Source of the DNA: Syntrophomonadaceae bacterium
Lineage (GTDB): Bacteria; Bacillota; Syntrophomonadia; Syntrophomonadales; Syntrophothermaceae
Reading direction: 5' to 3'
Length of the DNA stretch: 64,000 nucleotides
NCBI GenBank assembly: GCA_012799365.1
Contig: JAAZLJ010000087.1
Span: 393 to 64,392, forward strand
Within the stretch, counting starts at the first letter, position 1; each line of letters starts with the position of its first letter. A program made the translations under genes and the position numbers. Under the pieces are notes generated by a model. That model was not told the origin of the DNA. It was given only the letters and a program-made list of their open reading frames with translations, and ran no database searches. Positions 7,296-35,915 of this stretch are shown here, piece after piece.

Positions 7296-9944
7296 ATGCA
7301 AATCATAACATCCCATAATTCCCTTGATTTTGACGGCCTGGCGGCGATGGTAGCCGCCGGTAAGCTGTATCCTTCTGCGACCAAGGTTTTTTGTGGTACC
7401 CTATCGACCAACGTAAGGCAGTTCATGAGCCTGTACAAAGACCATGTATTGACAAAATTCCCCAAACAGATTAACCTGCAAGAAGTCGATCACATGGTGG
7501 TGGTCGATACCCGCAGTCCCCAACGTCTGGGAAGCCTGAAGGAGTTATGTCAGCGTTCAGGTGTGGATTTACACATTTATGATCATCATCCTGATGCATC
7601 GGGTGACCTGGTAGGGTCGGTGAATGAGGTGCACGAGGTAGGGGCGGTTACTACTGTATTGGTGGAGAAGATAATAGAAAATGATATACCGATCAGTCCT
7701 TTTGAGGCTACTATTTTCGCTCTGGGTATCTATGAAGACACCGGGAGCCTGCTTTTTTCTTCTACCACTTCCCGGGATGCAGCGGTGGTAGCTTTTTTAC
7801 TGGGACGGGGAGCCAATCTTTTAGTAGTAGCTAACTTTATCGAGGAGCCTTTCTCCGAAGGCCAGCGTCTTATTCTTCAAGATCTGCTGCAGACCTCCCA
7901 GTACCATAGGATTAACAGTCTGGATATCGTAATAGCGACTTCTTATGTCGAAAAGTTTGTCCCCGGGCTGGATTTAGTTACCCATCGTTTAACGGAGATC
8001 GAACCAGCCGATGCTGTGTTTGTAACGGTCATGATGGAAGGCAAGGTTAATATAGTGGCTCGCAGTCGCAGTACCAGTATACCGGTAAACGACATTCTAG
8101 CACCGTTGGGAGGTAGAGGACATGCCCGGGCCGCGTCGGCAGTGGTAAGGGATCGGAGTCTGGAGGAAGTAACAGCGACCATCGTCGCCAACCTGGAACA
8201 AATCGATGGCCCCATCCTGACGGCTGAGAAGATCATGTCCAGTCCGGTGAAAACTCTTTCGATTGATACCAGCATCGGGGAAGCCGGGCGTATCATGTTA
8301 CGTTACGGACATACTGGAATGCCAGTGGTCGATGGTGATAAAATCGTGGGTATTATTTCCCGGCGGGATGTAGATAAGGCTCATATACATAACCTGGCCC
8401 ATGCGCCGGTCAAGGGGTTCATATCTCGTAACGTTATTTTCGTTACGCCTGATACTCCGGTAAGTGAGTTACAGAGGTTGATGGTAGAAAAGGATGTTGG
8501 CCGTCTACCAGTTATTAGTAACGGTAGTTTGGTGGGTATCGTTTCTCGTACCGATATTTTACGTACCTTGCATGGAGATGGTACCCAGCCGGGAATCCAT
8601 GAGGTGCTGTACGAGAGCGATGGGGGCGCCTGGTATGATAACTGTTACGAGCTTTTAATCCGCAGGCTCCCGGTGCGTATTGTATCTATCCTGGAGATGG
8701 CCGGTAAGATCGCTGCTGACATGGGCTATACTGTATATATGGTGGGTGGAGTGGTACGAGATATCTTCTTACAGGTACCCAATTTTGATGTGGACCTGGT
8801 GGTGGAAGGAGATGGTCCAGCGCTGGCTCACAATCTGGCTCGGGCATTAGGGGGAAGGGCCAGGGTTCATGACCGTTTCAAGACTGCGGTGGTGGTTTTG
8901 CCCGAAGGTTTTAAGCTGGATATAGCTACTGCGCGTACCGAGTATTACGAATTTCCGGCGGCTCTGCCGCGGGTGGAGAAATCTTCCATACGAGAGGACT
9001 TATACCGGCGCGATTTTACCATTAATACCATGGCGATTTGTTTGAATCCTGATCGTTTTGGGGAGCTGATCGATTATTTTGGTGGTCGTAAGGATCTGCA
9101 GGCCGGGTTGATAAGGGTGCTTTATAATCTTAGTTTTATCGAGGACCCTACTCGTATATTGCGGGCTATTCGTTTTGAACAGCGGTACCGGTTCCAGATT
9201 GAACCAGAGACCTTGCGGTTTGCGCGGGAGGCGATTGCTCGCAGGCTCTTGGGCAGATTATCATATAATCGCATACAACAGGAACTGGGGTTGATATTAG
9301 AAGAAAAAGACCCGGTACCGGCATTGCGGCGCATGGATGAAATCGGGGTATGGCATTACGTACTCCCCGAGGTTAAACTGGATAATGAGGTCTGGATCAT
9401 GCTGCGCCGCATCCCCCATATTTTGGGATGGTTGGCAGAGCGATGGCTGGAACCCAGCCCTCGCTCTGCCGTGGTTTACATCCTGGCTATCCTATCTCCT
9501 CTAACCGAGGAACAGATAGAGCAGGTTTTGAACCGGTATCAGTTTGATCGGGAGGTTGCTCGTACCATCAGAATGGCCCGGGAGGTGCCGTACCTGGCGG
9601 AAGAGATTGAGGCCAACCCTGGTCTGGCCATGAGCGAACTGGACCACAAGGTAAGGAGACTTTCTATTGAAAATATTGTCTACCTGCTGCTGTGTTTTAC
9701 CAGTACCGAACCCTGGGAAAAGGTGGTTCAGTACCTGGAGCTGCGAGAGGATGTCAGGATACAGGTAAGCGGCTACGATTTAAAGAGATTGGGGATAAAA
9801 CAGGGGCCGGTGTACCAGCAAATACTGGATGAGTTATATGGTGCTTGCCTGGACGGGCTGGTTAACGACTATGAAGACGAGCTTAACCTGGTTCGAACCT
9901 GGATAGCGGAAGGGAGATTTGGTCTTGGCAAATCAGGTGTATGA
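7296..9944 (+). CDS. DHH/DHHA1-CBS pair-polyA polymerase/tRNA nucleotidyltransferase (CCA-adding family) fusion protein
   Basis: N-terminal LDFDGLAAM and YDHHPD (DHH). Two CBS-like segments. GGVVRD...DVDLVVEGD nucleotidyltransferase motif plus RDFTIN. Confidence 0.8.
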   Translation: MQIITSHNSLDFDGLAAMVAAGKLYPSATKVFCGTLSTNVRQFMSLYKDHVLTKFPKQINLQEVDHMVVVDTRSPQRLGSLKELCQRSGVDLHIYDHHPDASGDLVGSVNEVHEVGAVTTVLVEKIIENDIPISPFEATIFALGIYEDTGSLLFSSTTSRDAAVVAFLLGRGANLLVVANFIEEPFSEGQRLILQDLLQTSQYHRINSLDIVIATSYVEKFVPGLDLVTHRLTEIEPADAVFVTVMMEGKVNIVARSRSTSIPVNDILAPLGGRGHARAASAVVRDRSLEEVTATIVANLEQIDGPILTAEKIMSSPVKTLSIDTSIGEAGRIMLRYGHTGMPVVDGDKIVGIISRRDVDKAHIHNLAHAPVKGFISRNVIFVTPDTPVSELQRLMVEKDVGRLPVISNGSLVGIVSRTDILRTLHGDGTQPGIHEVLYESDGGAWYDNCYELLIRRLPVRIVSILEMAGKIAADMGYTVYMVGGVVRDIFLQVPNFDVDLVVEGDGPALAHNLARALGGRARVHDRFKTAVVVLPEGFKLDIATARTEYYEFPAALPRVEKSSIREDLYRRDFTINTMAICLNPDRFGELIDYFGGRKDLQAGLIRVLYNLSFIEDPTRILRAIRFEQRYRFQIEPETLRFAREAIARRLLGRLSYNRIQQELGLILEEKDPVPALRRMDEIGVWHYVLPEVKLDNEVWIMLRRIPHILGWLAERWLEPSPRSAVVYILAILSPLTEEQIEQVLNRYQFDREVARTIRMAREVPYLAEEIEANPGLAMSELDHKVRRLSIENIVYLLLCFTSTEPWEKVVQYLELREDVRIQVSGYDLKRLGIKQGPVYQQILDELYGACLDGLVNDYEDELNLVRTWIAEGRFGLGKSGV

Positions 9945-10545
9945 GCTGCTGATCTGGCTGCCGGCTATATTGATAGCGCTAACCTTTCACGAATATGCTC
10001 ATGCCCGGGTGGCAGATGTACTGGGAGATGATACTCCTTATTACCAGGGGAGGTTGACCCTTAACCCCCTGCCCCACATTGACTGGATAGGGTTTTTGCT
10101 GCTGGTACTGGTCCATTTCGGCTGGGCCAAGCCGGTGCAGGTGAATCCCTTGAATTTTAGAGGAGTAAATATGCGAACCGGCATGATGCTGGTATCCCTG
10201 GCCGGTCCGCTGATGAATATTTTATTGGCAATTATCGGGCTTTTGCTCCTGAAATACCTGCCTCTGGTTATGACCGGAGAAAATTTGTATATGTTGGCCC
10301 GGCTGTTGGAGCCGCTGGTGTGGATAAATGTTATATTAGCCGCTTTCAATTTGATACCTGTACCGCCTTTGGACGGTTCTAAGATCCTGGCCGGGCTGCT
10401 GCCTCCACGTGGGGCGGAATTTTTTGATCGCCTGGAGCCTTATGGCACCATTATTCTTCTACTATTAATTGTGACCGGTACGGTGGGAACCGTGCTGTAT
10501 CCGTTTATTTACGCGATTATGGGTGTTTTACGCCTGGTTGTATGA
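9919..10545 (+). CDS. Site-2 protease family (peptidase M50) membrane protein
   Basis: HEYAH zinc motif and NLIPVPPLDGSKIL. TTG at 9919 or 9925 after GGAAGGGAG. Overlaps the end of the upstream gene. Confidence 0.8.
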   Translation: MVLANQVYELLIWLPAILIALTFHEYAHARVADVLGDDTPYYQGRLTLNPLPHIDWIGFLLLVLVHFGWAKPVQVNPLNFRGVNMRTGMMLVSLAGPLMNILLAIIGLLLLKYLPLVMTGENLYMLARLLEPLVWINVILAAFNLIPVPPLDGSKILAGLLPPRGAEFFDRLEPYGTIILLLLIVTGTVGTVLYPFIYAIMGVLRLVV

Positions 10546-21357: not shown

Positions 21358-22491
21358 CTAATTCTTGAAAGTTAGTATCCTGGTGAGCAAACCGCTTCGC
21401 TTTATCTCTGATTGGGCATCGACCTTTACTTCTACGGTGGGGAATATGTGCTCCCAGTCTGGCTCTATCTGTTTCCATTCCCGGGGATAGGTGCGGCTGA
21501 GGGCCAGTCCAAAGCCGAAGATGTCGGAGTCCAGCTCCCGGGCCTTTTTTACCGCGGCCAAAACTTCTTGCTCAATTTGTCGGCTGCCAGCCTGTTCCAG
21601 TCGTTTAAGATTCTCCGGGGTAAGCAGGTTATCAGTATCTCTCTCCTCATAGAAATTGGCTGTCTCCCGGATATCGATAGACATAATTATCCTCCCCTTG
21701 CTATCTATTTCTGGTTTTATTTTGCTCTTAGCTCTCAGGGTTTCCAGTGCTACCGGTTTCCCTCCGACTGGAGAGGGGAGAATTTTTATCCCGCCCCGAA
21801 TTCTTTTGGGTCTTAACCAGCGGTAACCCCGGGATTCCGGTTCATTCAGCCAGCCTACCAACTTCCCTTTTTTAATGACGGCCATTCCTGAGAGCTGAAG
21901 TCTTTTTTTCCCGGGTTGTTCCTCGACTATTTCTATCCCGGGGATAACCGGCTCCACGCCCGGGGCGGCTATTTTGCCCAGGAATTCGCCTATAGTAATC
22001 TCAGTGTACAGGCCGACACCGGGGTCCTGGGTCCTTATCATGGAGACCAGACCCTGGGCCGGTAGTTTTTCGATGGGGGTGGGTACTTCCAGTACCTCAC
22101 GGGCGGTCGCTCCTCGGGCGATGAAGATGTCCCCGGTTTCTCTTATGGTTTCGGCTCTGACCAGAAGGTCTAGCACGTCAGTCAGGTGCCCGGCCATATC
22201 TTCTCCCAGGACATGGACTGTTATGTGATGGGGCAGCTGTTTCCGCGGGGAAAAAAGGGTGGTATTCCTGAAGGCCGCTGAAACGGTATCACCAACCGCC
22301 GTAACCGTAGTAAATGGTTGGTTTGTACTGGCAAGTGCTGTTTGTGCGGTAACCATGATGCGGCCGCTGGTAGCCCGATCCCACCCGCCTCCGATGAGGA
22401 CTGCCGCCTGGTTAACTTCTATTCGTCCCCAGCAGCCGGAAGCCAGGGTGAGGATAATAATTATAAAGATAAGCCAGAATTTTTTCGGCAA
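21358..22491 (-). CDS. Ger(x)C family germination lipoprotein, copy 2
   Basis: Lipobox LTLASGC. Likely TTG start at 22491 after GGAGTG (track ATG at 22527). C-terminal domain is paralogous to the other C subunits (DSDIFGFG, YPREW). Confidence 0.85.
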   Translation of the reverse strand: MPKKFWLIFIIIILTLASGCWGRIEVNQAAVLIGGGWDRATSGRIMVTAQTALASTNQPFTTVTAVGDTVSAAFRNTTLFSPRKQLPHHITVHVLGEDMAGHLTDVLDLLVRAETIRETGDIFIARGATAREVLEVPTPIEKLPAQGLVSMIRTQDPGVGLYTEITIGEFLGKIAAPGVEPVIPGIEIVEEQPGKKRLQLSGMAVIKKGKLVGWLNEPESRGYRWLRPKRIRGGIKILPSPVGGKPVALETLRAKSKIKPEIDSKGRIIMSIDIRETANFYEERDTDNLLTPENLKRLEQAGSRQIEQEVLAAVKKARELDSDIFGFGLALSRTYPREWKQIEPDWEHIFPTVEVKVDAQSEIKRSGLLTRILTFKN

Positions 22492-22570
22492 ACTCTTCAC
22501 TCCTATGATTGATTGATATAGACCCATACAGGACCGATTTCGCGGTTCACCAAGTTAACATATTTCCTTC

Positions 22571-22625
22571 TCAGCATCAATAATAATTGAAAAGAAACCA
22601 GCGTTAATCTGCGTCTGATCTTAAT
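22571..22625 (-). repeat. Repeat module A fragment, reverse orientation
   Basis: AAACCAGCGTTAATCTGCGTCTGATC resembles the reverse complement of GATCAGACGCAGATTAACGCTG-type arrays. Confidence 0.7.
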
Positions 22626-22630
22626 ATTTC

Positions 22631-23815
22631 TTAATACCTGAATTCCAGAGTTCTGGTGGTAAGGTAGCTTCTTCGTACCTCCGATTGGACATCAAGCTCT
22701 ATCTTGACGGTGGGAAAGACTTCCTCCCAGTGTTCTTCCAACCGCGTCCATTCCCGGGGATAGGCAGAGTGCAGGGCTTGGCCGAAGCCGAAAATATCGG
22801 AATCCAGTTCCTGGGCTCTGGTAACTGCCGCCCGGACTTGTTCTGCGATAAGCTGCTCGGCTTCTCGGTTCAGTATCGGGATCATCTCGGGAGTAACCAG
22901 TTGGTGGCGGCACTTTTGTTCATAGAAGTTGCCTTCCTCACGGATCTTTATGTGCATTATGATTTCTCCGTCTTTTATTTCGGCTTTGATTTTGCTGGTT
23001 GAACGCAGGGTGTCCAGCAGGACCGGCTTATCGCATATTGGGCATTTAATAACTTTGGTGCCCCCTATAATCATTGTAGGCCTGAGCCAGCGGTAGCCCC
23101 GGGATTCCTTTTCGTTTAACCACCCCACCAGTTTAGCCTGTTTGAACACCGCGGTTCCGGAGATGCGCAGCCGCTTTTTTCCTCCTTCTTCTACTATCTC
23201 CACCCCGGGGGCCGTGGGTTCTATACCGGGAGTGATGCTCTGACCAAGGAAATCCCCAAGTTTAATCGGGGTATAAATACCCAGGCTGGTGTCCTGATTT
23301 TTTATCATGGATACCAGGGCCACCGCCGGGATTCTTTCCACCTCGGTGGGGACTTTTAAGACTTCTGAAACAGTTGCATTTCTGGTGATAAAAACGTAGC
23401 CAATTTTTCGGATCTGACGGTTTCTCTGTAACCAGTCAATTTCTCCCGCAAAACCCTGCCGGGAAAAGTTTTCCCCAAATACATAACAGGCAGCGTGCTG
23501 CCAGAGGGGGCCGCGGGGGGTGTTTAAATGTACTTTCCGAGCCCCGTCGGTAAAGGTGTCAGCAACCGTGGAAATGGTAACAAAGCTGGGACCGGTGGGG
23601 GCAGTCTTTTCTGTTCGGGTGGCTTTGCCTTTGGCTTCAGGGGGTGGCAGCGGGATTTGCTCGGTAAAACGCAGCTTATTTCCGGGGCAGGTATCCACGC
23701 CCGCCGCAATGGTCACGAAGCTTTCCTCTACTTCCTGGCGGTCCCAGCAGCCGGCCGAGAGGCCAAGGCTAGCTGCAAGTAGTATGGCTGTCCATTTTTT
23801 GAGCACGGTTTTCAC
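22631..23815 (-). CDS. Ger(x)C family germination lipoprotein, copy 1 (gerAC-like)
   Basis: Signal peptide MKTVLKKWTAILLAASLGLSAGC. Overlaps the upstream B gene by 47 nt. Third gene of an A-B-C operon. Confidence 0.9.
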   Translation of the reverse strand: MKTVLKKWTAILLAASLGLSAGCWDRQEVEESFVTIAAGVDTCPGNKLRFTEQIPLPPPEAKGKATRTEKTAPTGPSFVTISTVADTFTDGARKVHLNTPRGPLWQHAACYVFGENFSRQGFAGEIDWLQRNRQIRKIGYVFITRNATVSEVLKVPTEVERIPAVALVSMIKNQDTSLGIYTPIKLGDFLGQSITPGIEPTAPGVEIVEEGGKKRLRISGTAVFKQAKLVGWLNEKESRGYRWLRPTMIIGGTKVIKCPICDKPVLLDTLRSTSKIKAEIKDGEIIMHIKIREEGNFYEQKCRHQLVTPEMIPILNREAEQLIAEQVRAAVTRAQELDSDIFGFGQALHSAYPREWTRLEEHWEEVFPTVKIELDVQSEVRRSYLTTRTLEFRY

Positions 23816-24884
23816 CTCGTTTCCAGAGGGATATTAAGAAAAAAACCAGGGGCAGCACTACGGTAAAGAAAAGCAGAACCAGGTGGAATAGCTGGTCATG
23901 AAAGTTCTGAATTTGCGCTACATTATCAAAAATTAAGATACTTAATGGAGCAACTATCAGGGTCCCGGGCAATACCAGGGGGCGATGGTTTTGCAGGCGT
24001 AACAGGTCGGCACCGGTATGAGCAAAAAGAAATAAGAGTAAACTGGTCTTGATGACAATATTGTTTATCCAGACGGCAATCAACAAGGCATCCAATCGCT
24101 GGATAAACTCCCCCAGGTAGATACCTCTAACCATAGAGAAAGCAGGAAACGTGAATATACCGGCCAGGTAGTGATTGAAATAGGCGGTTATGAGCAGTAT
24201 GAAAGAACTGAACCAGAACATAGCGAATAGCACACTGACCAACAGGGGTATGCCGGCCCGCTTTTTGTCATGTATGAATGGAACCAGCAGTACCATCCAG
24301 AAGGCTTCTGTATAGGGGTACGTGTGCTTCCAGGAGGCCCGAGCCAGAAGCAGAATACCTTCAGGTAGTACTGGCAGGAGGTTATTCCAGTCCACCTGTC
24401 CGGTGACCGCCAGAAGAATTAACAGAGCAAAAATGGAGTTAACCCAGATGAGTATCTGACACAGTTGGGCGAGGGCCGTGATCCCCTGGCGGGCGATGTA
24501 GGCGCTGGCCAGAAGCAAAGCGGCAACCAGTACACTTATCGGTAGAACTACCATTACTACCGAAATGACGAAATCAGTAAACAGCCGGAGGGATAAAGCA
24601 CAGTGGAATAATATAAACACCAGGTAAAGCAGGATAATCAACCGGCCCACCCATTTCCCCATCAGGGACTCGACCAGGGGCACGAATCCGGTTTGACCCC
24701 GCTTTATAAGTTGGGAGTACAACCAGGCCAGGAGCAGTCCCCAGATTCCGCTCAAGAGTACCAGTATCCAGCCATTGCTCTGTGCGATTTCGATAACATG
24801 GCGTGGTTCGTATATAATAGCAGTGGCAAATATTATAAAGATGCTGATAGAGTAGAGCTGAAAGCCAGAGATCTTGTCATTCAT
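23769..24884 (-). CDS. Spore germination protein, B subunit (gerAB-like), copy 1
   Basis: Multi-TM permease-like protein; starts 3 nt after the A-subunit stop. Confidence 0.9.
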   Translation of the reverse strand: MNDKISGFQLYSISIFIIFATAIIYEPRHVIEIAQSNGWILVLLSGIWGLLLAWLYSQLIKRGQTGFVPLVESLMGKWVGRLIILLYLVFILFHCALSLRLFTDFVISVVMVVLPISVLVAALLLASAYIARQGITALAQLCQILIWVNSIFALLILLAVTGQVDWNNLLPVLPEGILLLARASWKHTYPYTEAFWMVLLVPFIHDKKRAGIPLLVSVLFAMFWFSSFILLITAYFNHYLAGIFTFPAFSMVRGIYLGEFIQRLDALLIAVWINNIVIKTSLLLFLFAHTGADLLRLQNHRPLVLPGTLIVAPLSILIFDNVAQIQNFHDQLFHLVLLFFTVVLPLVFFLISLWKRGENRAQKMDSHTTCS

Positions 24885-24887
24885 CCT

Positions 24888-26429
24888 TTATTCCTGCCTG
24901 ACCCGGTTATCAGGGGAAATGTTTTGAGGGCGCTGCCGCATGGCCCACCAGGGTCGGCGTACCAATGTATCGGAGAGATCTCCCTGGTTGGTGGGGGCCA
25001 GAGGAGACAGGTAAGGGACTCCAAAAGAGGTCATGGAGGCCAGACGGACCAGGAGCATGATGAGTCCGATCATGATACCGAAATAACCCAGGAAACCGGC
25101 CAATATGAGCATGGGGAACCGGGCGATGCGTATAGCCATACCAGCGTTATAAGCCGGAAAAATAAAGGAAGCGATACCGGTGAAGGCTACCACCACCACC
25201 ATGGGAGTGGAGACCAGGCCGGCTGAGACGGCTGCATCTCCAATTACCAGGGCTCCTACGATGCTTATCGCGGGACCAATGGCCCGGGGCATGCGAATTC
25301 CGGCTTCGCGGAGGAATTCGAAGGTTATTTCCATCATTAATGCCTCTACCAGGGCGGGGAATGGCACTCCTTCCCTGGAAGCGGCTATGGTTAAAAGCAG
25401 AGGAGTGGGGATCATTTCCTGATGGTAGGTAATGGTAGCCACGTAAAGCGAGGGGAGCAGGAGTGTAATCAGAAAAGCCAATTGCCGCAGCAAACGAATC
25501 AGGCTGGCAGGAACATAACGCGAATAATAGTCTTCTGGAGAAATCCAGAACTGGGGCAGAGTGGCGGGTACCACCATGGCCCAGGGGGAACCGTCCACCA
25601 TCAGGGCCACTCTACCTTCCAGGAGGTGGGCTACCACTCGGTCTGGGCGCTCGGTATGTTCTGCCTGGGGGAAGACGGAATAGTGGTGGTCTTCCATAAG
25701 TTCTTCCAGGTAATTGGTATCCAATACCCCGTCGATATCTATCTTTTCCAACCGATTCTTCACTTCCTGAATTAGTGATTCATCGGCCACTCCTTTTATG
25801 TAACAGATGATGGTATTGGTTTTGGTATACCTACCTATGGAAATGGATTCTATTTTAAAGCAGTTAGTTTTCAGCCGCCGCCGCAGCAGCGCGGTATTGA
25901 TCCGAAGGGTTTCATTAAACCCTTCGTTGGGCCCCTTGACGATAACCTCTTGATCCGGGCTTTCTACCGGTCTTCCCTGCCAGTACCTGATGCCAGCTAC
26001 CAGGCCCTGATTATACCCGTCAATTATCAACACGCCATCACCGGAAGCGATATGTTGCATAACTTCTTCGAAAGTGTCGCACTCCAGCAGGTCAGTTACT
26101 GCCAACAAACGATCTCGGGTGTTTTCATAAATGTTACCTGCTTGCGTTTCGACGGCGTCTTCTATCTGATCCATTTCCAGCATAAGGGGGTAAAGAATCG
26201 AGGCTTCCGCTTCGGTCTTGGATACCAAACCGTCAAAATAGACGAGGAGTGCGTCGGTGTCTCTATCCTTACCGAATTTGAACTTCCTCATCACCGCATC
26301 GGAACAGCCCTGCAGGAGCTGTTCCAGGTATGTATGGTTGGTTTGCAGGTCATAGGCCAGGCTCTGAGTCAGTATCTGAGCATCGGTAAGTGGTTCTTCC
26401 GGCTGTCCCTTTGGGGGTAAGTAGCGCAT
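24888..26429 (-). CDS. Spore germination protein, A subunit (GerAA/GerKA family)
   Basis: Soluble N-terminal domain plus a C-terminal TM domain with ...REGVPFPALVEALMMEITFE...GDAAVSAGL...FGVPYLSPLAP; RBS GGAGGGAAC. Confidence 0.92.
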   Translation of the reverse strand: MRYLPPKGQPEEPLTDAQILTQSLAYDLQTNHTYLEQLLQGCSDAVMRKFKFGKDRDTDALLVYFDGLVSKTEAEASILYPLMLEMDQIEDAVETQAGNIYENTRDRLLAVTDLLECDTFEEVMQHIASGDGVLIIDGYNQGLVAGIRYWQGRPVESPDQEVIVKGPNEGFNETLRINTALLRRRLKTNCFKIESISIGRYTKTNTIICYIKGVADESLIQEVKNRLEKIDIDGVLDTNYLEELMEDHHYSVFPQAEHTERPDRVVAHLLEGRVALMVDGSPWAMVVPATLPQFWISPEDYYSRYVPASLIRLLRQLAFLITLLLPSLYVATITYHQEMIPTPLLLTIAASREGVPFPALVEALMMEITFEFLREAGIRMPRAIGPAISIVGALVIGDAAVSAGLVSTPMVVVVAFTGIASFIFPAYNAGMAIRIARFPMLILAGFLGYFGIMIGLIMLLVRLASMTSFGVPYLSPLAPTNQGDLSDTLVRRPWWAMRQRPQNISPDNRVRQE

Positions 26430-26540
26430 GGTTCCCTCCTTTCTGTGTACAGTTTTGGCGTAAAATGTAAACTATATGCATACAAAGACAGGTATAATGA
26501 TAAGTAGTGGTGCGTGAGGTGGATGGCTTTGATGAATAGA

Positions 26541-26572
26541 TTTGAAACCGCAGATGAATGCTGATGGACGGA
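26541..26572 (+). repeat. Repeat module A copy in the divergent promoter region
   Basis: 26542-26570 is identical over 29 nt to 11608-11636. Confidence 0.9.
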
Positions 26573-26632
26573 TCTGTATAGCACAGCCCAAGAAACCTGT
26601 TCGCACCTGGTTTACGTAGGGAGAAGATTTTC

Positions 26633-27322
26633 ATGAGACCGATTCTACGAAAAATTACCGATGGAGTACCCCTGAAGGCGGGGGAATATGAACGTTTGCT
26701 GGCATACATCGAAGAATTGCGCCAGGTGGGTGGGGATTCTTACCGGGTTTTTCGGGAAAATTATGGTACCAAGCTAGGACGGGATTATGGCTTTTATCTG
26801 AGCCGCTATTCCGCCGGGGGTGCGGATCTGGTGGAATACCTGGCCGCCAACCCATCGGTGGTGAGAGCGATGCAGGAAGAACCGGTACCGGTGGCTAGTT
26901 TTCCTCCCTGGTTGCGGGATTATCTCCTGAACGAATACGGGCTATACCTGAAGGCAGGTCAGATCGGTGACCTCCTGAGTTGGCTGCGGCGGGAGCGGAT
27001 TACGGCGGTCGGCCTGCCTCGGGGACGGGAAGGCGAGGCAGTGCTGGTGTATGAAGAGGGTAATCCCTATAAGGAAACCGGGTTAAAACAGCATTTTGAA
27101 AATATTGCCCGCCGTAGCTTTGTGACCCGGGTGGTAAGTATACGCTACCTGACCAGGAATAAGGCGCGGGCTGATGGCTTTAAGGTTCGAGGTGATGACT
27201 GCTTATCAGGCATTTTTACCAATCGGGAAAAATCGATTTACTACCTGGTCTATTTGACCGAGGCTGATGCCGGTAAAGCGGAAAATGCGTGCAAGCTGCT
27301 GAATCAAGTTTTTTACGGGTAA
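26633..27322 (+). CDS. Hypothetical protein, gene 1 of the Hsp70-associated operon
   Basis: 229 aa; ATG after GGGAGAAG. Long ORF with coding-like composition. No motif I recognise. Confidence 0.7.
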   Translation: MRPILRKITDGVPLKAGEYERLLAYIEELRQVGGDSYRVFRENYGTKLGRDYGFYLSRYSAGGADLVEYLAANPSVVRAMQEEPVPVASFPPWLRDYLLNEYGLYLKAGQIGDLLSWLRRERITAVGLPRGREGEAVLVYEEGNPYKETGLKQHFENIARRSFVTRVVSIRYLTRNKARADGFKVRGDDCLSGIFTNREKSIYYLVYLTEADAGKAENACKLLNQVFYG

Positions 27323-27398
27323 TTCGTTAGTCAAGTATGGAGGTTAAATAATAGTTTTTGCAGTGGGATCAACTAATAAATAATTGGGGTGAAGGCTG

Positions 27399-28871
27399 AT
27401 GTCGTCCGGTATTGCCGGGATTATTGAGAAACTTAATAAGAGCAGTGGAAAAGATATTTTCTTATATTGGGAAGGGGAAATTCAGGCCCGGAAACAGGTG
27501 CGAGAAGCCAGAACCTGGGAAGAACTGAGCGGAATCGAGCCGGAGCGGGAAACCATCGACTTTTTATTTCGCGCTTTTTTCCCTACCGCCCGGCGCAACT
27601 GGTTCTATCGTTATCTGCTGATAAATTCCCATACCATGCCGGTGATTCGCTGGTTGATGTCCTGCCCTCGGGGAATCAAGATGGATTTTCTGACCCGGTT
27701 ACCGCTGCTGCTGCAGGCGATGCCCGGGCAAAATCTGGATTTCCTGATAAATATCTATACCAGTTCTTTACAGGAGGTTTATCGCCGCATTTTGTTGGGT
27801 TTGAATCAGGAAACGGTTTCTCATCTGATGGGACGAACTGCGAACCCGGAGCTGCGGCGGCTGTTGCGTGAACGGCGGGAGCAGCTGCAGGCAGAACGTC
27901 AAAAGGCTCATATGGGTCTGGACCTGGAGGCTATTCGAGTTCCCGGGTGGGAGAGTTTCTATGGTAATAAGGTGGAATTAGGGCAGGAGGTTCTGGCTGT
28001 TTTGCAGGAGGCCAGGGTAGATAATTTCGCCCATCCGTACAGCGGTGAACGCTTGACGGTTTTGGTGCGAGCGGTGGAAGCCCTGTATTGCCTGGGCTGG
28101 GTACAGGACAGCCTGGTACTCCTGGTGGAAACCTACCAGGATTTCATGGCCCGCAGCCGCCTGCCGGATCCAGCGACCGCGCAGGCCTTGTACCGTGACC
28201 TGGATGGGATGGCCCGAATGCTGATCCCCATCTACTGTTTGTTGGAATATCCTACCGAACCGGGGAGACGAGCCCGGGAAATATATCGATGGTCTTTACC
28301 CCAGCTTATGTACGAGGAAGCTTCGGTGGCCTATCTGGATTTTCTGGTGGGGCTGCCGCGGGTGGGTTCTACGGGTGTTTTACACCTGCAGGCGGAGGTA
28401 AGGGGTTTCTGTGAACTGGTGGGCCACTCACGAATAGATGATGAATTTATTCGTATCCTGCAGGCGGAGGAGCTGGACAGTTCTGATTTATCAAGGTTGG
28501 CAGCAATAGCCCGCGAAAGGCTTAAGTCCCGGCCCCATGAGACTTTTGTTATCCTGGAATTGGTTCGGGGCCTGGTGGCTAAAGGCCGGGTGGAAGTCGG
28601 ACCCGGGTGGAGTGAGGAATTGTTCCAGACTTATCTGGAACTGTGGCACTGGATTCCTTCCCGGATATTTCTCAACCAGATTTTGTTGGACAGCCTGACT
28701 CCCGGGCTGGGTGTTGAGTGGCGGCGGCAGGTATCCCAGGTGCGGGAGTGGTTAAGTCGAGAGCCAAACCAGATATTAGAATTCTACCGTGATAAGCCGG
28801 ATCTGGCCAGAACTCAAGGCAGCCTGGTGGCTCTGGAAACGGTGTTTGGTAAACTACTGGGGGTACAATAA
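27399..28871 (+). CDS. Hypothetical helical protein, gene 2 of the Hsp70-associated operon
   Basis: 490 aa; ATG after GGGGTGAAGG. Its stop overlaps the next start (TAATG). No P-loop or HPD motif. Confidence 0.75.
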   Translation: MSSGIAGIIEKLNKSSGKDIFLYWEGEIQARKQVREARTWEELSGIEPERETIDFLFRAFFPTARRNWFYRYLLINSHTMPVIRWLMSCPRGIKMDFLTRLPLLLQAMPGQNLDFLINIYTSSLQEVYRRILLGLNQETVSHLMGRTANPELRRLLRERREQLQAERQKAHMGLDLEAIRVPGWESFYGNKVELGQEVLAVLQEARVDNFAHPYSGERLTVLVRAVEALYCLGWVQDSLVLLVETYQDFMARSRLPDPATAQALYRDLDGMARMLIPIYCLLEYPTEPGRRAREIYRWSLPQLMYEEASVAYLDFLVGLPRVGSTGVLHLQAEVRGFCELVGHSRIDDEFIRILQAEELDSSDLSRLAAIARERLKSRPHETFVILELVRGLVAKGRVEVGPGWSEELFQTYLELWHWIPSRIFLNQILLDSLTPGLGVEWRRQVSQVREWLSREPNQILEFYRDKPDLARTQGSLVALETVFGKLLGVQ

Positions 28872-30523
28872 TGGATGATAAATCACTGTCACAATTAAAT
28901 GAGCATTATGAGCAGATGCTGGAAGCTTTCCTGAAGGAAATTCAGCGGGAATGTGAACGGCAGGCAGTCGAGTTTGGTTACTCTGATCTGACACCGGAAG
29001 GTAGCATTATACCGACCGAGGTGTGGGAAGATTACCTGCATGAGGTTAATTCTTTCTATTATCGTAGTTTTCACCAGGGATTTTTTCCAGCTTACCGGGA
29101 TACGGTTAAAGCGGAAACGGCGGAGATCTACCAGGTCAGTCGGCAGGTGGATACCCTGCGGGAAGAAATAGCCAATAATCTTATCCGCTATGCTCAATTA
29201 TACAACCGCCTGAAGCATTTAATTCAGGTTCTGAGGGGACTGGTGGGAGAGGTTGAAGAACGGCAGGTGGAGTTGGAGCAGTCGCGTGAAGGGGTGTATC
29301 ACTTCCTTTACCAGTCGCTGGTGGAACTGCAGGAAGCGGTGGGGGAATTGCAGGGGTGGTACAGCAGTCTGGAGAAGCTGTGGGCCGAGCCGCATTGTCT
29401 GGAACTGGTCGCACGGTATGTAGAGTTACAGCTCTTGCTGCGTGATAGGGAAGTAGACGAGTCCCCGGATTTGGATACCGGACATCGGGATGCGGTGGGA
29501 CGTTGGTTGGCTGTTATGGCAAATAGTGCGGAGGCTTTGCAGGTTTTAGCGCAGGAAGCGGATGCCATGTTACCGGAGGAAGTGGGTAAAAGCTGGCAGG
29601 CCATAGCTAACGACCTGTTCCGTGTACCGGTGGGAGTACCGGGTTTTGTGGAGGATTTTATCCACTACGGGTTGGTACCCAGACTGCAGGCAGAGGTAGC
29701 ATTGGTAGGATTACGCTTAAAATTAAGGATGTTAGATTCAGACCAGGCTTTGGTAGAAGATGATGAGGAAGGTTTTCTAGAAGTCAGAGATTATGTGGCT
29801 TCTATCCAGCCTGTATTGGAACGTATCCTGGCTTTAAGACGCGACTTGCGGTGCCGGGAGCTGATGGCTCAGCCTGGTTATGTCGAACCGGCGGATATGG
29901 AGAAAATTCAGAGTATGTCCCGGCTGCTGCGCGAATTTGAGTGTGAATTAGGAAATGGGGCAGAAAAGCTGCGCCAGGGCAGGGATTTGAATCCACGAGA
30001 ACTGGAGCAGGTCGCTGAAGCTGCGGTCTTTCGGTTTGAAAAGGAGCTAACTCGACGGATGGGGCGGGCAGAGTTTAAAGTCCCCATGCGATTACAGTTA
30101 GAAAACGAAGGGTTCCGGGGGCGGCTGTCTTTGTTTGCGGTAAAGTTCTGGTATTACCGGGAGCAGTTGGAGCACAGTCTGCAGGAGATAGATCGATACC
30201 GGCATCTAACCGATTTGCTGCGCCGACACGGGGAGATTTTTGATGTTCTTCAGGATGATCTCGAGCTGTTGTTATCTCCACGCAGTCTGCGCCGGGCCTG
30301 GGGAGACCTTACGGTGGAAGTGAATCGGTATCCGCTGATACGGGGAGAGCAGCTGCCGTCGGAATGTGTTCACTTGTTGGAGGAAGGTCGTATCGAACGT
30401 AGACTGGTACCGGAGAAGGAATACCTGACGGTGTTGGAGGAAAAAGGTGATCTGTTTCGGGTGGAGGTAGATGGGCTGGTTCGGTGGGAGATACCTCATC
30501 TGGTGGTAGGAATGAAGGAGTAG
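28871..30523 (+). CDS. Hypothetical coiled-coil-like protein, gene 3 of the Hsp70-associated operon
   Basis: 550 aa, rich in E, L, R and Q. Start overlaps the gene 2 stop. Its stop TAG abuts the gene 4 GTG. Confidence 0.75.
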   Translation: MDDKSLSQLNEHYEQMLEAFLKEIQRECERQAVEFGYSDLTPEGSIIPTEVWEDYLHEVNSFYYRSFHQGFFPAYRDTVKAETAEIYQVSRQVDTLREEIANNLIRYAQLYNRLKHLIQVLRGLVGEVEERQVELEQSREGVYHFLYQSLVELQEAVGELQGWYSSLEKLWAEPHCLELVARYVELQLLLRDREVDESPDLDTGHRDAVGRWLAVMANSAEALQVLAQEADAMLPEEVGKSWQAIANDLFRVPVGVPGFVEDFIHYGLVPRLQAEVALVGLRLKLRMLDSDQALVEDDEEGFLEVRDYVASIQPVLERILALRRDLRCRELMAQPGYVEPADMEKIQSMSRLLREFECELGNGAEKLRQGRDLNPRELEQVAEAAVFRFEKELTRRMGRAEFKVPMRLQLENEGFRGRLSLFAVKFWYYREQLEHSLQEIDRYRHLTDLLRRHGEIFDVLQDDLELLLSPRSLRRAWGDLTVEVNRYPLIRGEQLPSECVHLLEEGRIERRLVPEKEYLTVLEEKGDLFRVEVDGLVRWEIPHLVVGMKE

Positions 30524-32281
30524 GTGATAGGTGTGCACCTGGGTATTGATCTGGGTACCAGCAGTATTAAAATGGGTATGATCGACCGGCAAGGTCGCTT
30601 TATAAATTTATTGGGAGCGGGAAGGATGATTCCTACAGTGGCGGTTTATGTACCCCGCACCGATCGGTTGTATTTTGGGTCAGAGGCTGTGGGCCTGCGC
30701 GAGCCGGGGATGGAAGCAGGGAAGTTCTTCAAGGTGGAGATCAAGCGCAACCCGGGTTACCATCTGGGACCATTTAATTTAACCGAGATTATAACGCAGT
30801 TGCTAAAATGGCTTTACCAGCAGTATGTGGCGAAAAAGGCAGAACCCGTGCAGACGGTTAACATCGGGATACCGAACTATTTTGGGTTAAAAGCGCGCCA
30901 GGTGGTATTGGCGGCGGCCCACACCGTTTTTTCTGGGGTTCCCATCCGGTTGGTGCCGGAGCCTCTGGCGGCTCTGGTAGGGTTGTTACGGGAGTGGGTG
31001 GTAGGGGACCAGGCTTCCTTGATGGGTAACCTGATGGTGGTGGATATTGGCGGTGGTACGGCTGATGTTAGTTTTGTTCATCTGAGCCGGTCGGAGGGAA
31101 CCCGGGCCATTCTGGAGGCTCATTTGCAGAGTGGCAGCGACGTTTTCAGTGGAGCCGAGGTAGATAAGGCTGTTCTGAGGCAGGTGTTGATACCGCGGTT
31201 TGAGTTGGAGACCGGGCAGCGTATTGCCTCCCATCTGAAAAAGGAAAAGGGTATACAGGGTGGGGAGGGGTACCGGTACGCCAGGATGTTGAGCCGGGCG
31301 GAAGAGATTAAAATTGGTTTGGCTGAAAAAGATGAGATACGGGTTGATATACCCGATTTCTATCGAGGCAGGTCGTTGAATACTGTTTTGATGCAGGAAG
31401 ATATGAGACCAGCCCTGGACAGCACGCTGCGTACCCTCAGGCAGTTTATAAAAAGTGAGGTTAGAGACCGTGCCCGGCAGGCGGGTCTCTATAACCGGGG
31501 TTGCTGGCAGTTTGACCAGGTGGTTTTGATGGGAGGTGCTTCCCGGTTGCCGGGCGTAAGGGAGGTGTTGGCGGAATTGGGAGTGAAGATACTGCAGCCC
31601 CGGGAACCCGAGTTTTATGTGGTCCGGGGATTGAGTGCTCTGGTTGGTTCCAGTGACGGTCCGGGTGGTCTGGAGATGAGAGTCATTTTCCCATTCCGTT
31701 TCTATATTGAGAAGCGGAAAACTGGGAAGTTTGATTCCCGTGTCCTGGAAGCTATTTCTTTCGATACCGCGAACCTGGAGCTGGATCCGGACGGAATCTA
31801 CCGCTTATTTTCGGTTCCTTTTGATTCTGCCTACAATCTGGGCCGGGAGGATGAACGGTTCGAAATCAGGGTGTATCAGGGCGAAGAGGGTGGAGAAGAA
31901 GCGGTTGATAGGATCAGAATTGACAATGAATCTCTGGTATTGGACTTTTCTGCCCGTCGGGAAGATATAGAAGGTGAGATGGTAGATATCTACCTGGACC
32001 TGGGGGCTTCCTGCCTGCGTACCAGCCGGGAGAAGGAAGCCGAACAGCCGGGGAAAGTGGAGAGGGATGGTAAGCGCTTATGGCAGGAGGCGCTTGGCCG
32101 TCAGGAGTCAACTACGGCTGCAGCCCGGTATCTGCAGGGGCAAGGTGCCCACCCGGCGCTCAATAATTTTGCCGAACGTCTGCAGGTTTTAAAAGAGGGT
32201 TCCCCCTATCAGAATTACGATGATTTTATGGTGGCCAAACTGCTGGCTTTCTTTGAGGTTCTGACCCATGAAAAGAAGTAG
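30524..32281 (+). CDS. Divergent Hsp70 family ATPase (non-DnaK paralog)
   Basis: GIDLGTSSIKMG, EPLAALVG, VVDIGGGTADVS and LMGGASRLPGV. C-terminal FEIRVYQGEEG...DIYLDLGASCLRTS resembles a degenerate SBD-beta. GTG at 30524 or 30533 after GAAGGAG. Confidence 0.85.
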   Translation: MIGVHLGIDLGTSSIKMGMIDRQGRFINLLGAGRMIPTVAVYVPRTDRLYFGSEAVGLREPGMEAGKFFKVEIKRNPGYHLGPFNLTEIITQLLKWLYQQYVAKKAEPVQTVNIGIPNYFGLKARQVVLAAAHTVFSGVPIRLVPEPLAALVGLLREWVVGDQASLMGNLMVVDIGGGTADVSFVHLSRSEGTRAILEAHLQSGSDVFSGAEVDKAVLRQVLIPRFELETGQRIASHLKKEKGIQGGEGYRYARMLSRAEEIKIGLAEKDEIRVDIPDFYRGRSLNTVLMQEDMRPALDSTLRTLRQFIKSEVRDRARQAGLYNRGCWQFDQVVLMGGASRLPGVREVLAELGVKILQPREPEFYVVRGLSALVGSSDGPGGLEMRVIFPFRFYIEKRKTGKFDSRVLEAISFDTANLELDPDGIYRLFSVPFDSAYNLGREDERFEIRVYQGEEGGEEAVDRIRIDNESLVLDFSARREDIEGEMVDIYLDLGASCLRTSREKEAEQPGKVERDGKRLWQEALGRQESTTAAARYLQGQGAHPALNNFAERLQVLKEGSPYQNYDDFMVAKLLAFFEVLTHEKK

Positions 32282-32395: not shown

Positions 32396-32432
32396 GTATG
32401 TTGCGTCTAATGGCTCATCTGCGGTTTCAATT
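32396..32432 (-). repeat. Repeat module A copy, reverse orientation, overlapping the rhomboid stop codon
   Basis: ATCTGCGGTTTCAA at 32417-32430, preceded by TTGCGTCTAATGGCTC. Confidence 0.85.
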
Positions 32433-35459: not shown

Positions 35460-35915
35460 CTATATATTCCCCTGGGGATAGGCGTAGATAGTATTAGGCT
35501 CGGGGGCCCAATTGTAGACCAGTAGTTCATCCAGGACATAGTTCAAGGTTTCTTCATATTCGGGGTATCTCTCATCTTCCGGATCAAATTTCGGTTTGAT
35601 TTCCATCACATAAACCGGGACTTCCATCCAGTTCATATATTTTAGTTCCTGCAGTCCTTCGTTTTCCAGGAACTGCAGTTCATCTATGCGGATGGAAAAG
35701 GGGCCATTGCCGTATCCTTCGCGGTCGCGGGCCACATGTGCCTTGAGTCGATCCAGGAAGGCATTCAACAGGCGTTCTTTTTCTGCACTGACCAGGTATT
35801 GATACAGGATATCGTGAATTTCCTTGATCAGTACCAGGGAAGTGAGATTGGGTAGGGAAAGGTGTTTTTCCTCCCGCAAAAACTTGAGTTCAAACAGGTT
35901 ATCTTTTTTTAGCAT
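35460..35915 (-). CDS. Hypothetical protein
   Basis: 151-aa acidic ORF with ATG start; no recognisable motif. Confidence 0.55.
   Translation of the reverse strand: MLKKDNLFELKFLREEKHLSLPNLTSLVLIKEIHDILYQYLVSAEKERLLNAFLDRLKAHVARDREGYGNGPFSIRIDELQFLENEGLQELKYMNWMEVPVYVMEIKPKFDPEDERYPEYEETLNYVLDELLVYNWAPEPNTIYAYPQGNI

Follow-up and report, generated by a model that had tools for sequence, protein, structure and literature searches.

Hsp70 chaperones are usually understood through their J-proteins and nucleotide-exchange factors. Here we describe an Hsp70 that is encoded with other company. It lies in a 64,000-nucleotide stretch of a Syntrophomonadaceae bacterium genome (contig JAAZLJ010000087.1, positions 393 to 64,392 of the forward strand; hereafter the window), as the last member (gene 4) of a four-gene operon whose other products are referred to as the gene 1, gene 2 and gene 3 proteins. 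The operon combines an Hsp70 with a private, uncharacterised partner set, and it works like a specialised Hsp70 system without qualifying as a DnaK or HscA system. We found no description of the cassette in the literature searched for it.

The gene 4 protein resembles the chaperones of the DnaK–DnaJ–GrpE and HscA–HscB systems in its three-part architecture and in its catalytic residues (Asp9, Lys70, the glutamate of PEP, DxGGGT and GG). Its identity to DnaK, BiP and HscA, however, is only ~16–27%, its substrate-binding domain has a signature of its own (PFDTANLELD) and the ATPase decays in part of the family. Unlike in canonical Hsp70 systems, the operon partners are three orphan proteins, with no HPD partner and no GrpE detected in or beside the operon.

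Predicted defence systems provide a second comparison. The CoCoNuT CnuD/CnuCD units and the DO-GTPase–tubulin–HSP70 systems likewise join an Hsp70-like protein to coiled-coil or helical-repeat proteins and an effector-type domain, and in some of their members the ATPase motifs are degenerate (PMC11090510; PMC7159879). In contrast to these systems, the operon encodes no McrB-type GTPase, DUF2357, HEPN, tubulin or other GTPase; the hallmarks of CoCoNuT and McrBC-linked Hsp70s (the McrB GTPase NxD motif, McrC DUF2357 and a HEPN or other nuclease) were found neither in genes 1–3 nor in the flanks, and no homology was detected between genes 2 and 3 and any CoCoNuT or DO-GTPase-system component. The operon also differs from Hsp70 defence systems in lying outside a defence island and in being vertically inherited in one family.

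Gene 1 relates to a further group, the CARF7 'CARF_DUF2103' ancillary proteins of type III CRISPR systems, as its residues 138–221 are homologous to the C-terminal domain of one such protein. Among the effector domains that Li et al. listed for Menshen NsnC and for Cas_APE2256 fusions is a 'DUF2103-like' one, for which they reported no confident structural homologue (PMC12065111); the gene 1 C-terminal domain is likewise without a solved structural relative. The likeness of gene 1 to NsnC comes from this published description, not from the NsnC sequence. Unlike CARF7 proteins, gene 1 lacks a CARF domain and begins with an unrelated, helical half, and there are no cas genes nearby. The operon finally recalls Firmicutes sporulation and germination gene sets in its position, as it adjoins gerA in the clade of the window and follows a pdaA-like gene in most Syntrophomonas. 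It differs from these sets in that its four proteins lie outside the known sporulation protein families, and homologue searches did not find the operon in Bacillus or Clostridium.

A conserved and vertically inherited operon

With an alignment of gene 1 as the query, a scan of a single genome for each species recovered gene 1 orthologues in 83 species-representative genomes, almost all of them labelled Syntrophomonadaceae. The carriers include Syntrophomonas wolfei subsp. methylbutyratica, S. zehnderi, S. palmitatica and Syntrophothermus. When 1.84 billion representative proteins were searched exhaustively with gene 1 by phmmer, only 21 matched, ~16 of which are orthologue clusters, and no relatives of the operon were found in IMG/VR contigs, PLSDB plasmids or GenBank phages. 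The operon appears restricted to the Syntrophomonadaceae.

Profile scans of the fetched loci revealed that the order gene 1–2–3–4 is kept in every locus with enough DNA. The junctions are similarly constrained, since the gap between genes 2 and 3 is almost always −4, −1 or 0 nt, that between genes 3 and 4 mostly 2–9 nt and that between genes 1 and 2 mostly below 20 nt. A preliminary description of the window, made from its sequence and open reading frames, had proposed a coupled four-gene unit and had named gene-order conservation across genomes as a check; the recurrence of both order and tight junctions in the related loci bears the proposal out. The four same-strand reading frames, the ribosome-binding-site (RBS)-like stretches ahead of genes 1, 2 and 4, the TAATG overlap of genes 2 and 3 and the direct abutment of the gene 3 stop and the gene 4 start were all located in the sequence as it had listed them (Table 1). 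Genes 3 and 4 share one reading frame. The conserved start/stop overlaps imply matched synthesis of the four proteins, terminator-like and promoter-like sites within the unit occur at chance level, and no Rfam family was found in the region.

The four proteins have diverged strongly, with a mean pairwise identity of 0.47 for gene 1, 0.30 for gene 2, 0.27 for gene 3 and 0.41 for gene 4, compared with 0.73 for the neighbouring acyl-CoA dehydrogenase in the same species. Their divergence co-varies within the set (Spearman 0.67–0.80) and also tracks that of the dehydrogenase (Spearman 0.29–0.71). We conclude that the four genes form a real, chromosomal and vertically inherited operon.

Two departures from the common layout were observed. 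Some S. wolfei-like genomes carry a non-coding insert of 90–325 nt between genes 3 and 4 (for example at 9677–10000 of locus L006; also in L020, L023 and L047). In the closest other species to the window (L013), the gap between genes 1 and 2 measures 1254 nt and gene 2 is truncated to 363 aa, so that the operon may be disrupted there.

An atypical Hsp70 and its three partners

Gene 4 belongs to the Hsp70 superfamily on two counts: it has the motifs of the nucleotide-binding domain (NBD), with the catalytic lysine and glutamate, and it has the β part of the substrate-binding domain (SBD-β) and a lid. The sequence matches Pfam HSP70 with an E-value of 3.6e-16 and the DnaK and BiP NBDs of the PDB with E-values of 1e-13 to 1e-11 (4.5e-13 for the DnaK NBD), although its single-sequence matches in Pfam, NCBIfam and the PDB are confined to residues ~84–370. 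Comparison of a 36-orthologue profile with a DnaK/HscA profile using hhalign extended the relationship to gene 4 residues 1–498, which align with residues 1–455 at 99.8% probability and continue through SBD-β (DnaK residues 363–455). A structural model was obtained with AlphaFold2 for a gene 3–gene 4 fusion chain, using 16 gene 4 homologues. The gene 4 part is predicted with a pLDDT of 80–92 across the NBD, the beta domain and three terminal helices; the beta domain is beta-rich (pLDDT 76–91), and together with the three helices it scores ~75–90. Foldseek aligned this model over 550–680 columns with full-length BiP, DnaK, Ssb and Hsp110 (best E-value 4e-27). The complete Hsp70/actin-fold signature and the degenerate DnaK-like substrate-binding beta domain noted earlier are thus both supported, the latter by hhalign, AlphaFold and Foldseek in agreement, and a lid is present as well.

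Asp9, Lys70, Glu146 (of PEP), DIGGGT and GG are 94–100% conserved in 36 full-length gene 4 orthologues, the window copy included, and the protein encoded in the window should bind and hydrolyze ATP. Gene 4 is nevertheless not a housekeeping dnaK, as the preliminary description had recognized. It scores 57–61 bits against the NCBIfam HscA and DnaK models, far under their equivalog cut-offs of 650–820. Pfam and NCBIfam scans detected no GrpE or DnaJ family among the partners or the neighbouring genes, and the HPD motif of J-domains is absent from every protein of the operon. The DnaK entries of published S. wolfei proteomics tables (Swol_0490 and Swol_1578) are paralogues other than gene 4.

The ATPase is not kept throughout the family. 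In one subclade gene 4 is a truncated pseudo-ATPase of only ~420–465 aa, which has lost the Lys70 region along with most of subdomain IIB and in which DIGGGT is eroded, for instance to VIQINEAE. Three species have no gene 4, and in these a reverse-strand acyl-CoA dehydrogenase comes after gene 3. Genes 1–3 are always present, including in the loci with a short or absent gene 4; contrary to the earlier view, the operon is not built around its Hsp70. The beta-domain motifs IYPFxFYIE and (I)PFDTANLELD are the best kept of the family, and IYPFxFY and (I)PFDTANLELD are conserved in the full and short forms alike. Because these motifs outlast the ATPase, the constant contribution of gene 4 seems to be binding via its beta domain, the motor being an addition that some lineages have dropped.

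The start of gene 4 is ambiguous, with one GTG 3 nt past the RBS (30524) and another 12 nt past it (30533). Public records hold versions of 582, 567 and 551 aa (window 30524–30580); the two shorter ones are without the phosphate-1 motif GIDLGTS and probably represent wrong start calls. The protein is named there 'Hsp70 family protein', 'molecular chaperone-like protein' or 'actin-like ATPase', genes 2 and 3 are each a 'hypothetical protein' and gene 1 has no name.

The preliminary description had placed genes 1–3 in no recognisable family, which holds for genes 2 and 3 but not for the C-terminal domain of gene 1. The AlphaFold2 model of gene 1 (19 relatives in the alignment; pLDDT 89.6) comprises a seven-helix N-terminal domain (residues 1–120) and a C-terminal domain (residues 137–228) with the topology strand, helix, four antiparallel strands, helix. 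Homology of residues 138–221 to the C-terminal domain of P0078, a CARF7 fusion protein, was detected by phmmer (E-value 2.4e-5 library-wide), BLASTP (36% identity over 85 aa, pairwise E-value 3e-12) and hhalign (97.2% probability, E-value 3e-11, 83 columns), with identities of 36–37% overall. P0078 itself belongs to Pfam Cas_APE2256 and matches the PADLOC model 'CARF7--CARF_DUF2103' from end to end (2.6e-92). The direct PADLOC match of gene 1 is weak (PDLC01930, E-value 0.0038) and places residues 141–227 on profile positions 269–352 of 353; Pfam, NCBIfam, PADLOC and PHROGs yielded no other match to gene 1. The name DUF2103 stems from the PADLOC and CARF classifications, and the Pfam DUF2103 model matches neither gene 1 nor P0078. 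Gene 1 thus carries the C-terminal DUF2103-like domain of the CARF7 'CARF_DUF2103' proteins without their CARF sensor and CRISPR–Cas neighbourhood, there being no Cas_APE2256 match in gene 1 and no cas gene within 10 kb. By homology, we read it as an effector-position domain of immune proteins joined to an unrelated helical domain.

Gene 1 is the best-conserved protein of the operon, and its invariant polar residues are Glu141, Asn144, Lys147, His154, Arg160, Arg166, Arg171, Tyr172, Asp181, Asp189, Asn197, Lys200 and Glu210. Foldseek found no relative of the gene 1 model in the PDB or BFVD (best E-values 0.07–0.1, TM-scores mostly below 0.25). The helix and antiparallel sheet of the C-terminal domain had suggested a RelE/BECR-like fold, which we rejected as Foldseek gave no match to RelE, YoeB or HigB. 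Two giant repeat proteins, P0075 (3683 aa) and P0079 (6742 aa), were also discarded as gene 1 homologues, their scores being an artefact of summing weak repeat matches to residues 14–91.

Genes 2 and 3 have no match in Pfam, NCBIfam, PADLOC or PHROGs. Word-indexed homologue searches gave only 2–4 close relatives of each, and the diversity in our alignments comes from the fetched loci instead. Per-member Pfam scans of these deep alignments (41–45 sequences) yielded no consistent family. Gene 2 had no PDB sequence match, whether searched as a single sequence, a small profile or a 41-sequence profile. Gene 3, from single sequence to 45-sequence profile, matched only generic coiled coils (keratin, apolipoprotein A-I and designed bundles) through its middle region. 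The 41-sequence alignment of gene 2 contains the invariant residues Trp24, Arg153, Trp418 and Pro420 and the conserved motifs S-x-PHEAF and YL.LW.W.P...F.N; from its sequence the protein is probably helical. In the 45-sequence alignment of gene 3, the motifs NSFYYRSF..FFPAYR and RYAQLYNQVK are conserved near the N-terminus, and a small C-terminal region, DLERLL.PRNL.R.WKD...G..FP...EE.GD.F, is conserved as well. In the fusion model, gene 3 is predicted with low confidence (pLDDT 35–60), as helical up to residue ~480, and the model says nothing reliable on the gene 3–gene 4 interface. Genes 2 and 3 can best be described as fast-evolving, putatively helical or coiled-coil proteins that keep sharp motifs. 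In agreement with the preliminary description, a motif scan of genes 1–3 found no Walker A (P-loop) or HPD motif and no transmembrane segment (highest 19-residue Kyte–Doolittle mean 1.5), and all four proteins are predicted to be soluble and cytoplasmic.

Genomic neighbourhood and interpretation

We next compared the surroundings of 83 distinct loci, of which 65 have enough upstream and 58 enough downstream sequence. The preliminary description had reported that the operon diverges from a germinant-receptor operon, and this neighbour is indeed GerA/GerAB/GerAC; a rhomboid gene converges on the other side. The same two neighbours occur in Syntrophothermus and one related metagenome-assembled genome (MAG). 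Elsewhere a pdaA-type context is usual: a polysaccharide deacetylase gene lies directly upstream on the same strand in 39 of the 65 loci, often only 14–40 nt from gene 1. This deacetylase best fits the sporulation enzyme PdaA, a muramic delta-lactam deacetylase (TIGR02884, E-value 2.2e-84), at 282.6 bits against an NCBIfam cut-off of 298, compared with 151 bits for PdaB and 96–111 bits for the vegetative PgdA types. A divergent NlpC/P60 gene is found upstream in 54 of the 65 loci. Downstream, a glucosaminidase gene occurs in 19 of the 58 loci, and a reverse-strand MerR gene with a long acyl-CoA dehydrogenase gene in 36–37 of them. In Bacillus, the gerA operon is expressed in the forespore. In Clostridioides difficile, pdaA depends on sigma-G (PMC3789822). 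The operon therefore adjoins cortex or germination genes in both types of neighbourhood, gerA being divergent in three members of the window clade, and for this reason we place its role in sporulation, dormancy or germination; the spore-related option raised in the preliminary description is strengthened by the loci outside the window clade, in which the pdaA-like cortex deacetylase is usually directly upstream.

The interpretation that we favour, which we regard as plausible while stopping short of calling it probable, is that the operon encodes a lineage-specific cytoplasmic four-protein complex that works in sporulation, dormancy or germination and in which the gene 1 domain is under Hsp70 control. 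All four proteins would assemble into a single complex, with genes 2 and 3 as an elongated scaffold and gene 4 clamping a partner segment through its conserved beta domain (PFDTANLELD and IYPFxFY). Where the ATPase is active, cycles of ATP binding and hydrolysis would assemble, release or remodel the complex and thereby control the effector-type domain of gene 1. Since no partner has an HPD motif, nucleotide cycling would be driven by the operon partners themselves or by housekeeping DnaJ and GrpE. The module would be made alongside spore-cortex and germination functions and act there, not in general protein folding. A bolder version, which we think very unlikely, sees an Hsp70 machine with non-J, non-GrpE partners in which chaperone and scaffold would hold a domesticated immune effector, the CRISPR-type DUF2103-like domain, inactive and release or recapture it at a developmental switch.

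Several observations weigh against the sporulation complex. Translational coupling is what suggests that the proteins assemble, and in the only co-fold, that of genes 3 and 4 as a single chain, the gene 3 part is of low confidence. Part of the family has a decayed gene 4 or none, so that ATP-driven remodelling is not a universal mechanism. The spore link is drawn from gene neighbourhood, and within it the pdaA-like deacetylase falls just below the NCBIfam cut-off. Sigma-A-like −10 elements (TAAAAT, TAGAAT or TACAAT) stand ahead of gene 1 in many loci, as does TATAAT at 26493–26498 of the window, so that vegetative expression is possible. By eye, no promoter for a sporulation sigma factor (F, G, E or K) could be assigned upstream of gene 1 or of a small ORF that precedes it in other species (described below). 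Several cultured species of Syntrophomonas are not known as spore formers.

The same neighbours could instead denote a vegetative envelope or morphogenesis module, in which the gene 2 and gene 3 scaffold and gene 4 as an actin-fold ATPase would position or regulate peptidoglycan-remodelling enzymes, the spore-like neighbours being simply wall enzymes. The frequency of NlpC/P60, deacetylase and glucosaminidase genes and the sigma-A-like elements agree with this, and gene 4 also matches MreB (1.6e-8) and is called 'actin-like ATPase involved in cell morphogenesis' by one source. We consider it unlikely, as gene 4 has the NBD, SBD and lid of an Hsp70, not the make-up of MreB or FtsA, and scores well above its MreB match as an Hsp70; moreover, the deacetylase is much nearer PdaA than PgdA, the gerA adjacency of the window clade is spore-specific and all four proteins lack a membrane anchor. 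Less likely still is a fixed conflict, toxin-control or abortive-infection system resembling CoCoNuT, in which a toxic gene 1 effector would be held and released by the Hsp70-like NTPase and coiled-coil adaptors. The CARF7 homology of the gene 1 domain at an effector position (PMC12065111), the repeated use of Hsp70-like NBD/SBD units, coiled coils and helical repeats by predicted defence systems (PMC11090510; PMC7159879), the fast evolution of genes 2 and 3 (27–30% mean identity, against 73% for the neighbouring enzyme) and a weak PADLOC match to PDC-M61B could all be cited for it. That match, however, is limited to the generic NBD, and the effector domain is the best-conserved part of the operon instead of a variable one. 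The distribution is the opposite of that of a defence island, being confined to one family, syntenic and co-diverging with the neighbours; no relatives turned up in the viral, plasmid and phage collections, and the genome scan revealed no second copy, although copy number was not counted. Neither the operon nor its surroundings carry a McrB GTPase, a CARF domain, a nuclease or any other mark of a defence system, and for general anti-phage defence too there are only weak, partial PADLOC matches. The conflict module that the preliminary description had entertained is consequently a poor fit to a vertically inherited, syntenic operon of one family with no mobile-element matches.

Gene 1 might alternatively act on the ribosome or RNA, the Hsp70-like protein and scaffold serving as a ribosome-associated holder, for example in translational shut-down and restart. 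According to PADLOC names and matches, CARF7 proteins carry either RelE or the gene 1 type of domain at the same position; CoCoNuT Hsp70-like units have been argued to bind RNA or ribosomes (PMC11090510), the gene 1 domain has conserved basic and aromatic residues (Lys147, Arg160, Arg166, Arg171, Tyr172 and Lys200), and the window operon lies ~4 kb from tig–clpP–clpX–lon. We give this reading, an argument by analogy, little credence: the gene 1 model matches no RelE, BECR or other RNase fold in the PDB, Pfam, PADLOC and NCBIfam revealed no RNA-binding family, and the tig–clpPX neighbourhood is not kept in other species. A fortuitous cluster of unrelated genes, or of mis-called ORFs, has next to no probability, because four intact ORFs occur in order, with overlapping junctions and with invariant residues in every protein, in ~80 species whose proteins are down to 20–45% identical; it is effectively refuted by conservation.

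An Hsp70 paralogue has thus been retained throughout the history of one bacterial family in the company of three dedicated proteins of unknown fold. Lineages in which the ATPase has decayed, or gene 4 has been lost while the partners were kept, are natural experiments that offer a comparative system for a substrate-binding domain without its motor. The DUF2103-like domain of CRISPR and Menshen proteins gains a second, non-immune context, which may help to reveal its biochemical activity. Syntrophic fatty-acid oxidisers are central to methanogenic digesters and genetically hard to study; if the spore link is correct, the operon would be a lineage-specific sporulation or germination component in these organisms. 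If gene 1 is indeed an effector held by the Hsp70, it would be a case of an immune effector domain domesticated for housekeeping, and the Hsp70 cycle would be regulated in a new way. The narrow distribution, in one family that is hard to manipulate, limits the general impact.

Feature coordinates and minor observations

Table 1. Coordinates of the operon, its domains, its translation signals and the dispersed repeat in the window
Feature	Position	Strand	Basis or description
Gene 1	26633..27322	+	ORF, 229 aa
Gene 2	27399..28871	+	ORF, 490 aa; orphan protein
Gene 3	28871..30523	+	ORF, 550 aa; orphan, putatively helical/coiled-coil protein
Gene 4	30524..32281	+	ORF, 585 aa, GTG start; Hsp70
RBS-like GGGAGAAG	26619..26626	+	From sequence; 6 nt ahead of gene 1 ATG
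RBS-like GGGGTGAAGG	27386..27395	+	From sequence; ahead of gene 2 ATG
TAATG	28869..28873	+	From sequence; gene 2 stop/gene 3 start overlap
AAGGAG, TAG, GTG	30515..30526	+	From sequence; RBS, gene 3 stop (30521-30523) and gene 4 start (30524)
Gene 1 C-terminal 'DUF2103-like' domain (residues ~137-228)	27041..27319	+	Sequence homology to CARF7 fusion protein P0078
Gene 4 nucleotide-binding domain (residues 1-375)	30524..31648	+	Pfam HSP70, PDB, hhalign; actin/Hsp70 fold
Gene 4 beta domain (residues ~383-500)	31670..32023	+	hhalign, AlphaFold, Foldseek; degenerate Hsp70 substrate-binding domain
Gene 4 three-helix 'lid' (residues ~516-585) and stop	32069..32281	+	AlphaFold helices (fusion residues 1066-1134), Foldseek
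Dispersed repeat, starts of 16-nt core	3010, 4108, 11608, 13923, 14058, 16685, 19316, 20685, 26542, 32415, 53937, 61145, 63937	both	

Two further ORFs accompany the operon in other species and are absent from the window. In at least 28 species, a co-directional small ORF of 63–75 aa comes just before the pdaA-like gene or gene 1 (for example L008 5938–6138, L012 5010–5210 and L059 ~8708). It has the consensus ...LEGK.IKKIL.CTE..I.LL.EDG.I..F..LEDE.IFDI... but matches no family. A conserved promoter-like motif, TGTAAC-N15-17-(C)TATATAAT, and the RBS AGAGGTG stand in front of it, and the ORF is a candidate fifth member of the unit, at its upstream end. In 23 of the 58 loci, gene 4 is immediately followed by a co-directional ORF of 267 aa (gap −13 to +25 nt in several; for example L010 11814–12617, and L038, L041 and L071). 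Its start overlaps the gene 4 stop in some loci (gaps of −13 and −4; +1 also occurs), and it has a GHGSTN motif and a C-terminal CxxCxxxC and matches no Pfam or NCBIfam family.

The preliminary description had the unit bracketed by copies of an intergenic repeat. The repeat pair is real, a 16-nt perfect inverted repeat at 26542–26557 and 32415–32430, but it is not specific to the unit: both are copies of a dispersed intergenic repeat with 13 occurrences in the window compared with 0.4 expected (up to 3 mismatches, both strands). The core TTGAAACCGCAGATGA is usually followed by aCGCTGATGGACGCAGATAA and an A/T-rich tail, and the element has the appearance of a REP-like sequence particular to this genome, or of a binding site present many times. 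We rejected the inverted repeat as a sign of mobility, as the repeat is dispersed and the Syntrophothermus cassette occupies the same place (the repeat was not looked for there).

The germinant-receptor locus of the window (21358–26429, reverse strand) encodes GerA and a spore permease together with a tandem pair of GerAC paralogues (394 and 389 aa), and a further permease lies upstream, so that the receptor set is partly duplicated. On the other side of the operon, a reverse-strand ORF of 151 aa (35460–35915) matches no family, and a relative with 62% identity lies near the Syntrophothermus cassette too.

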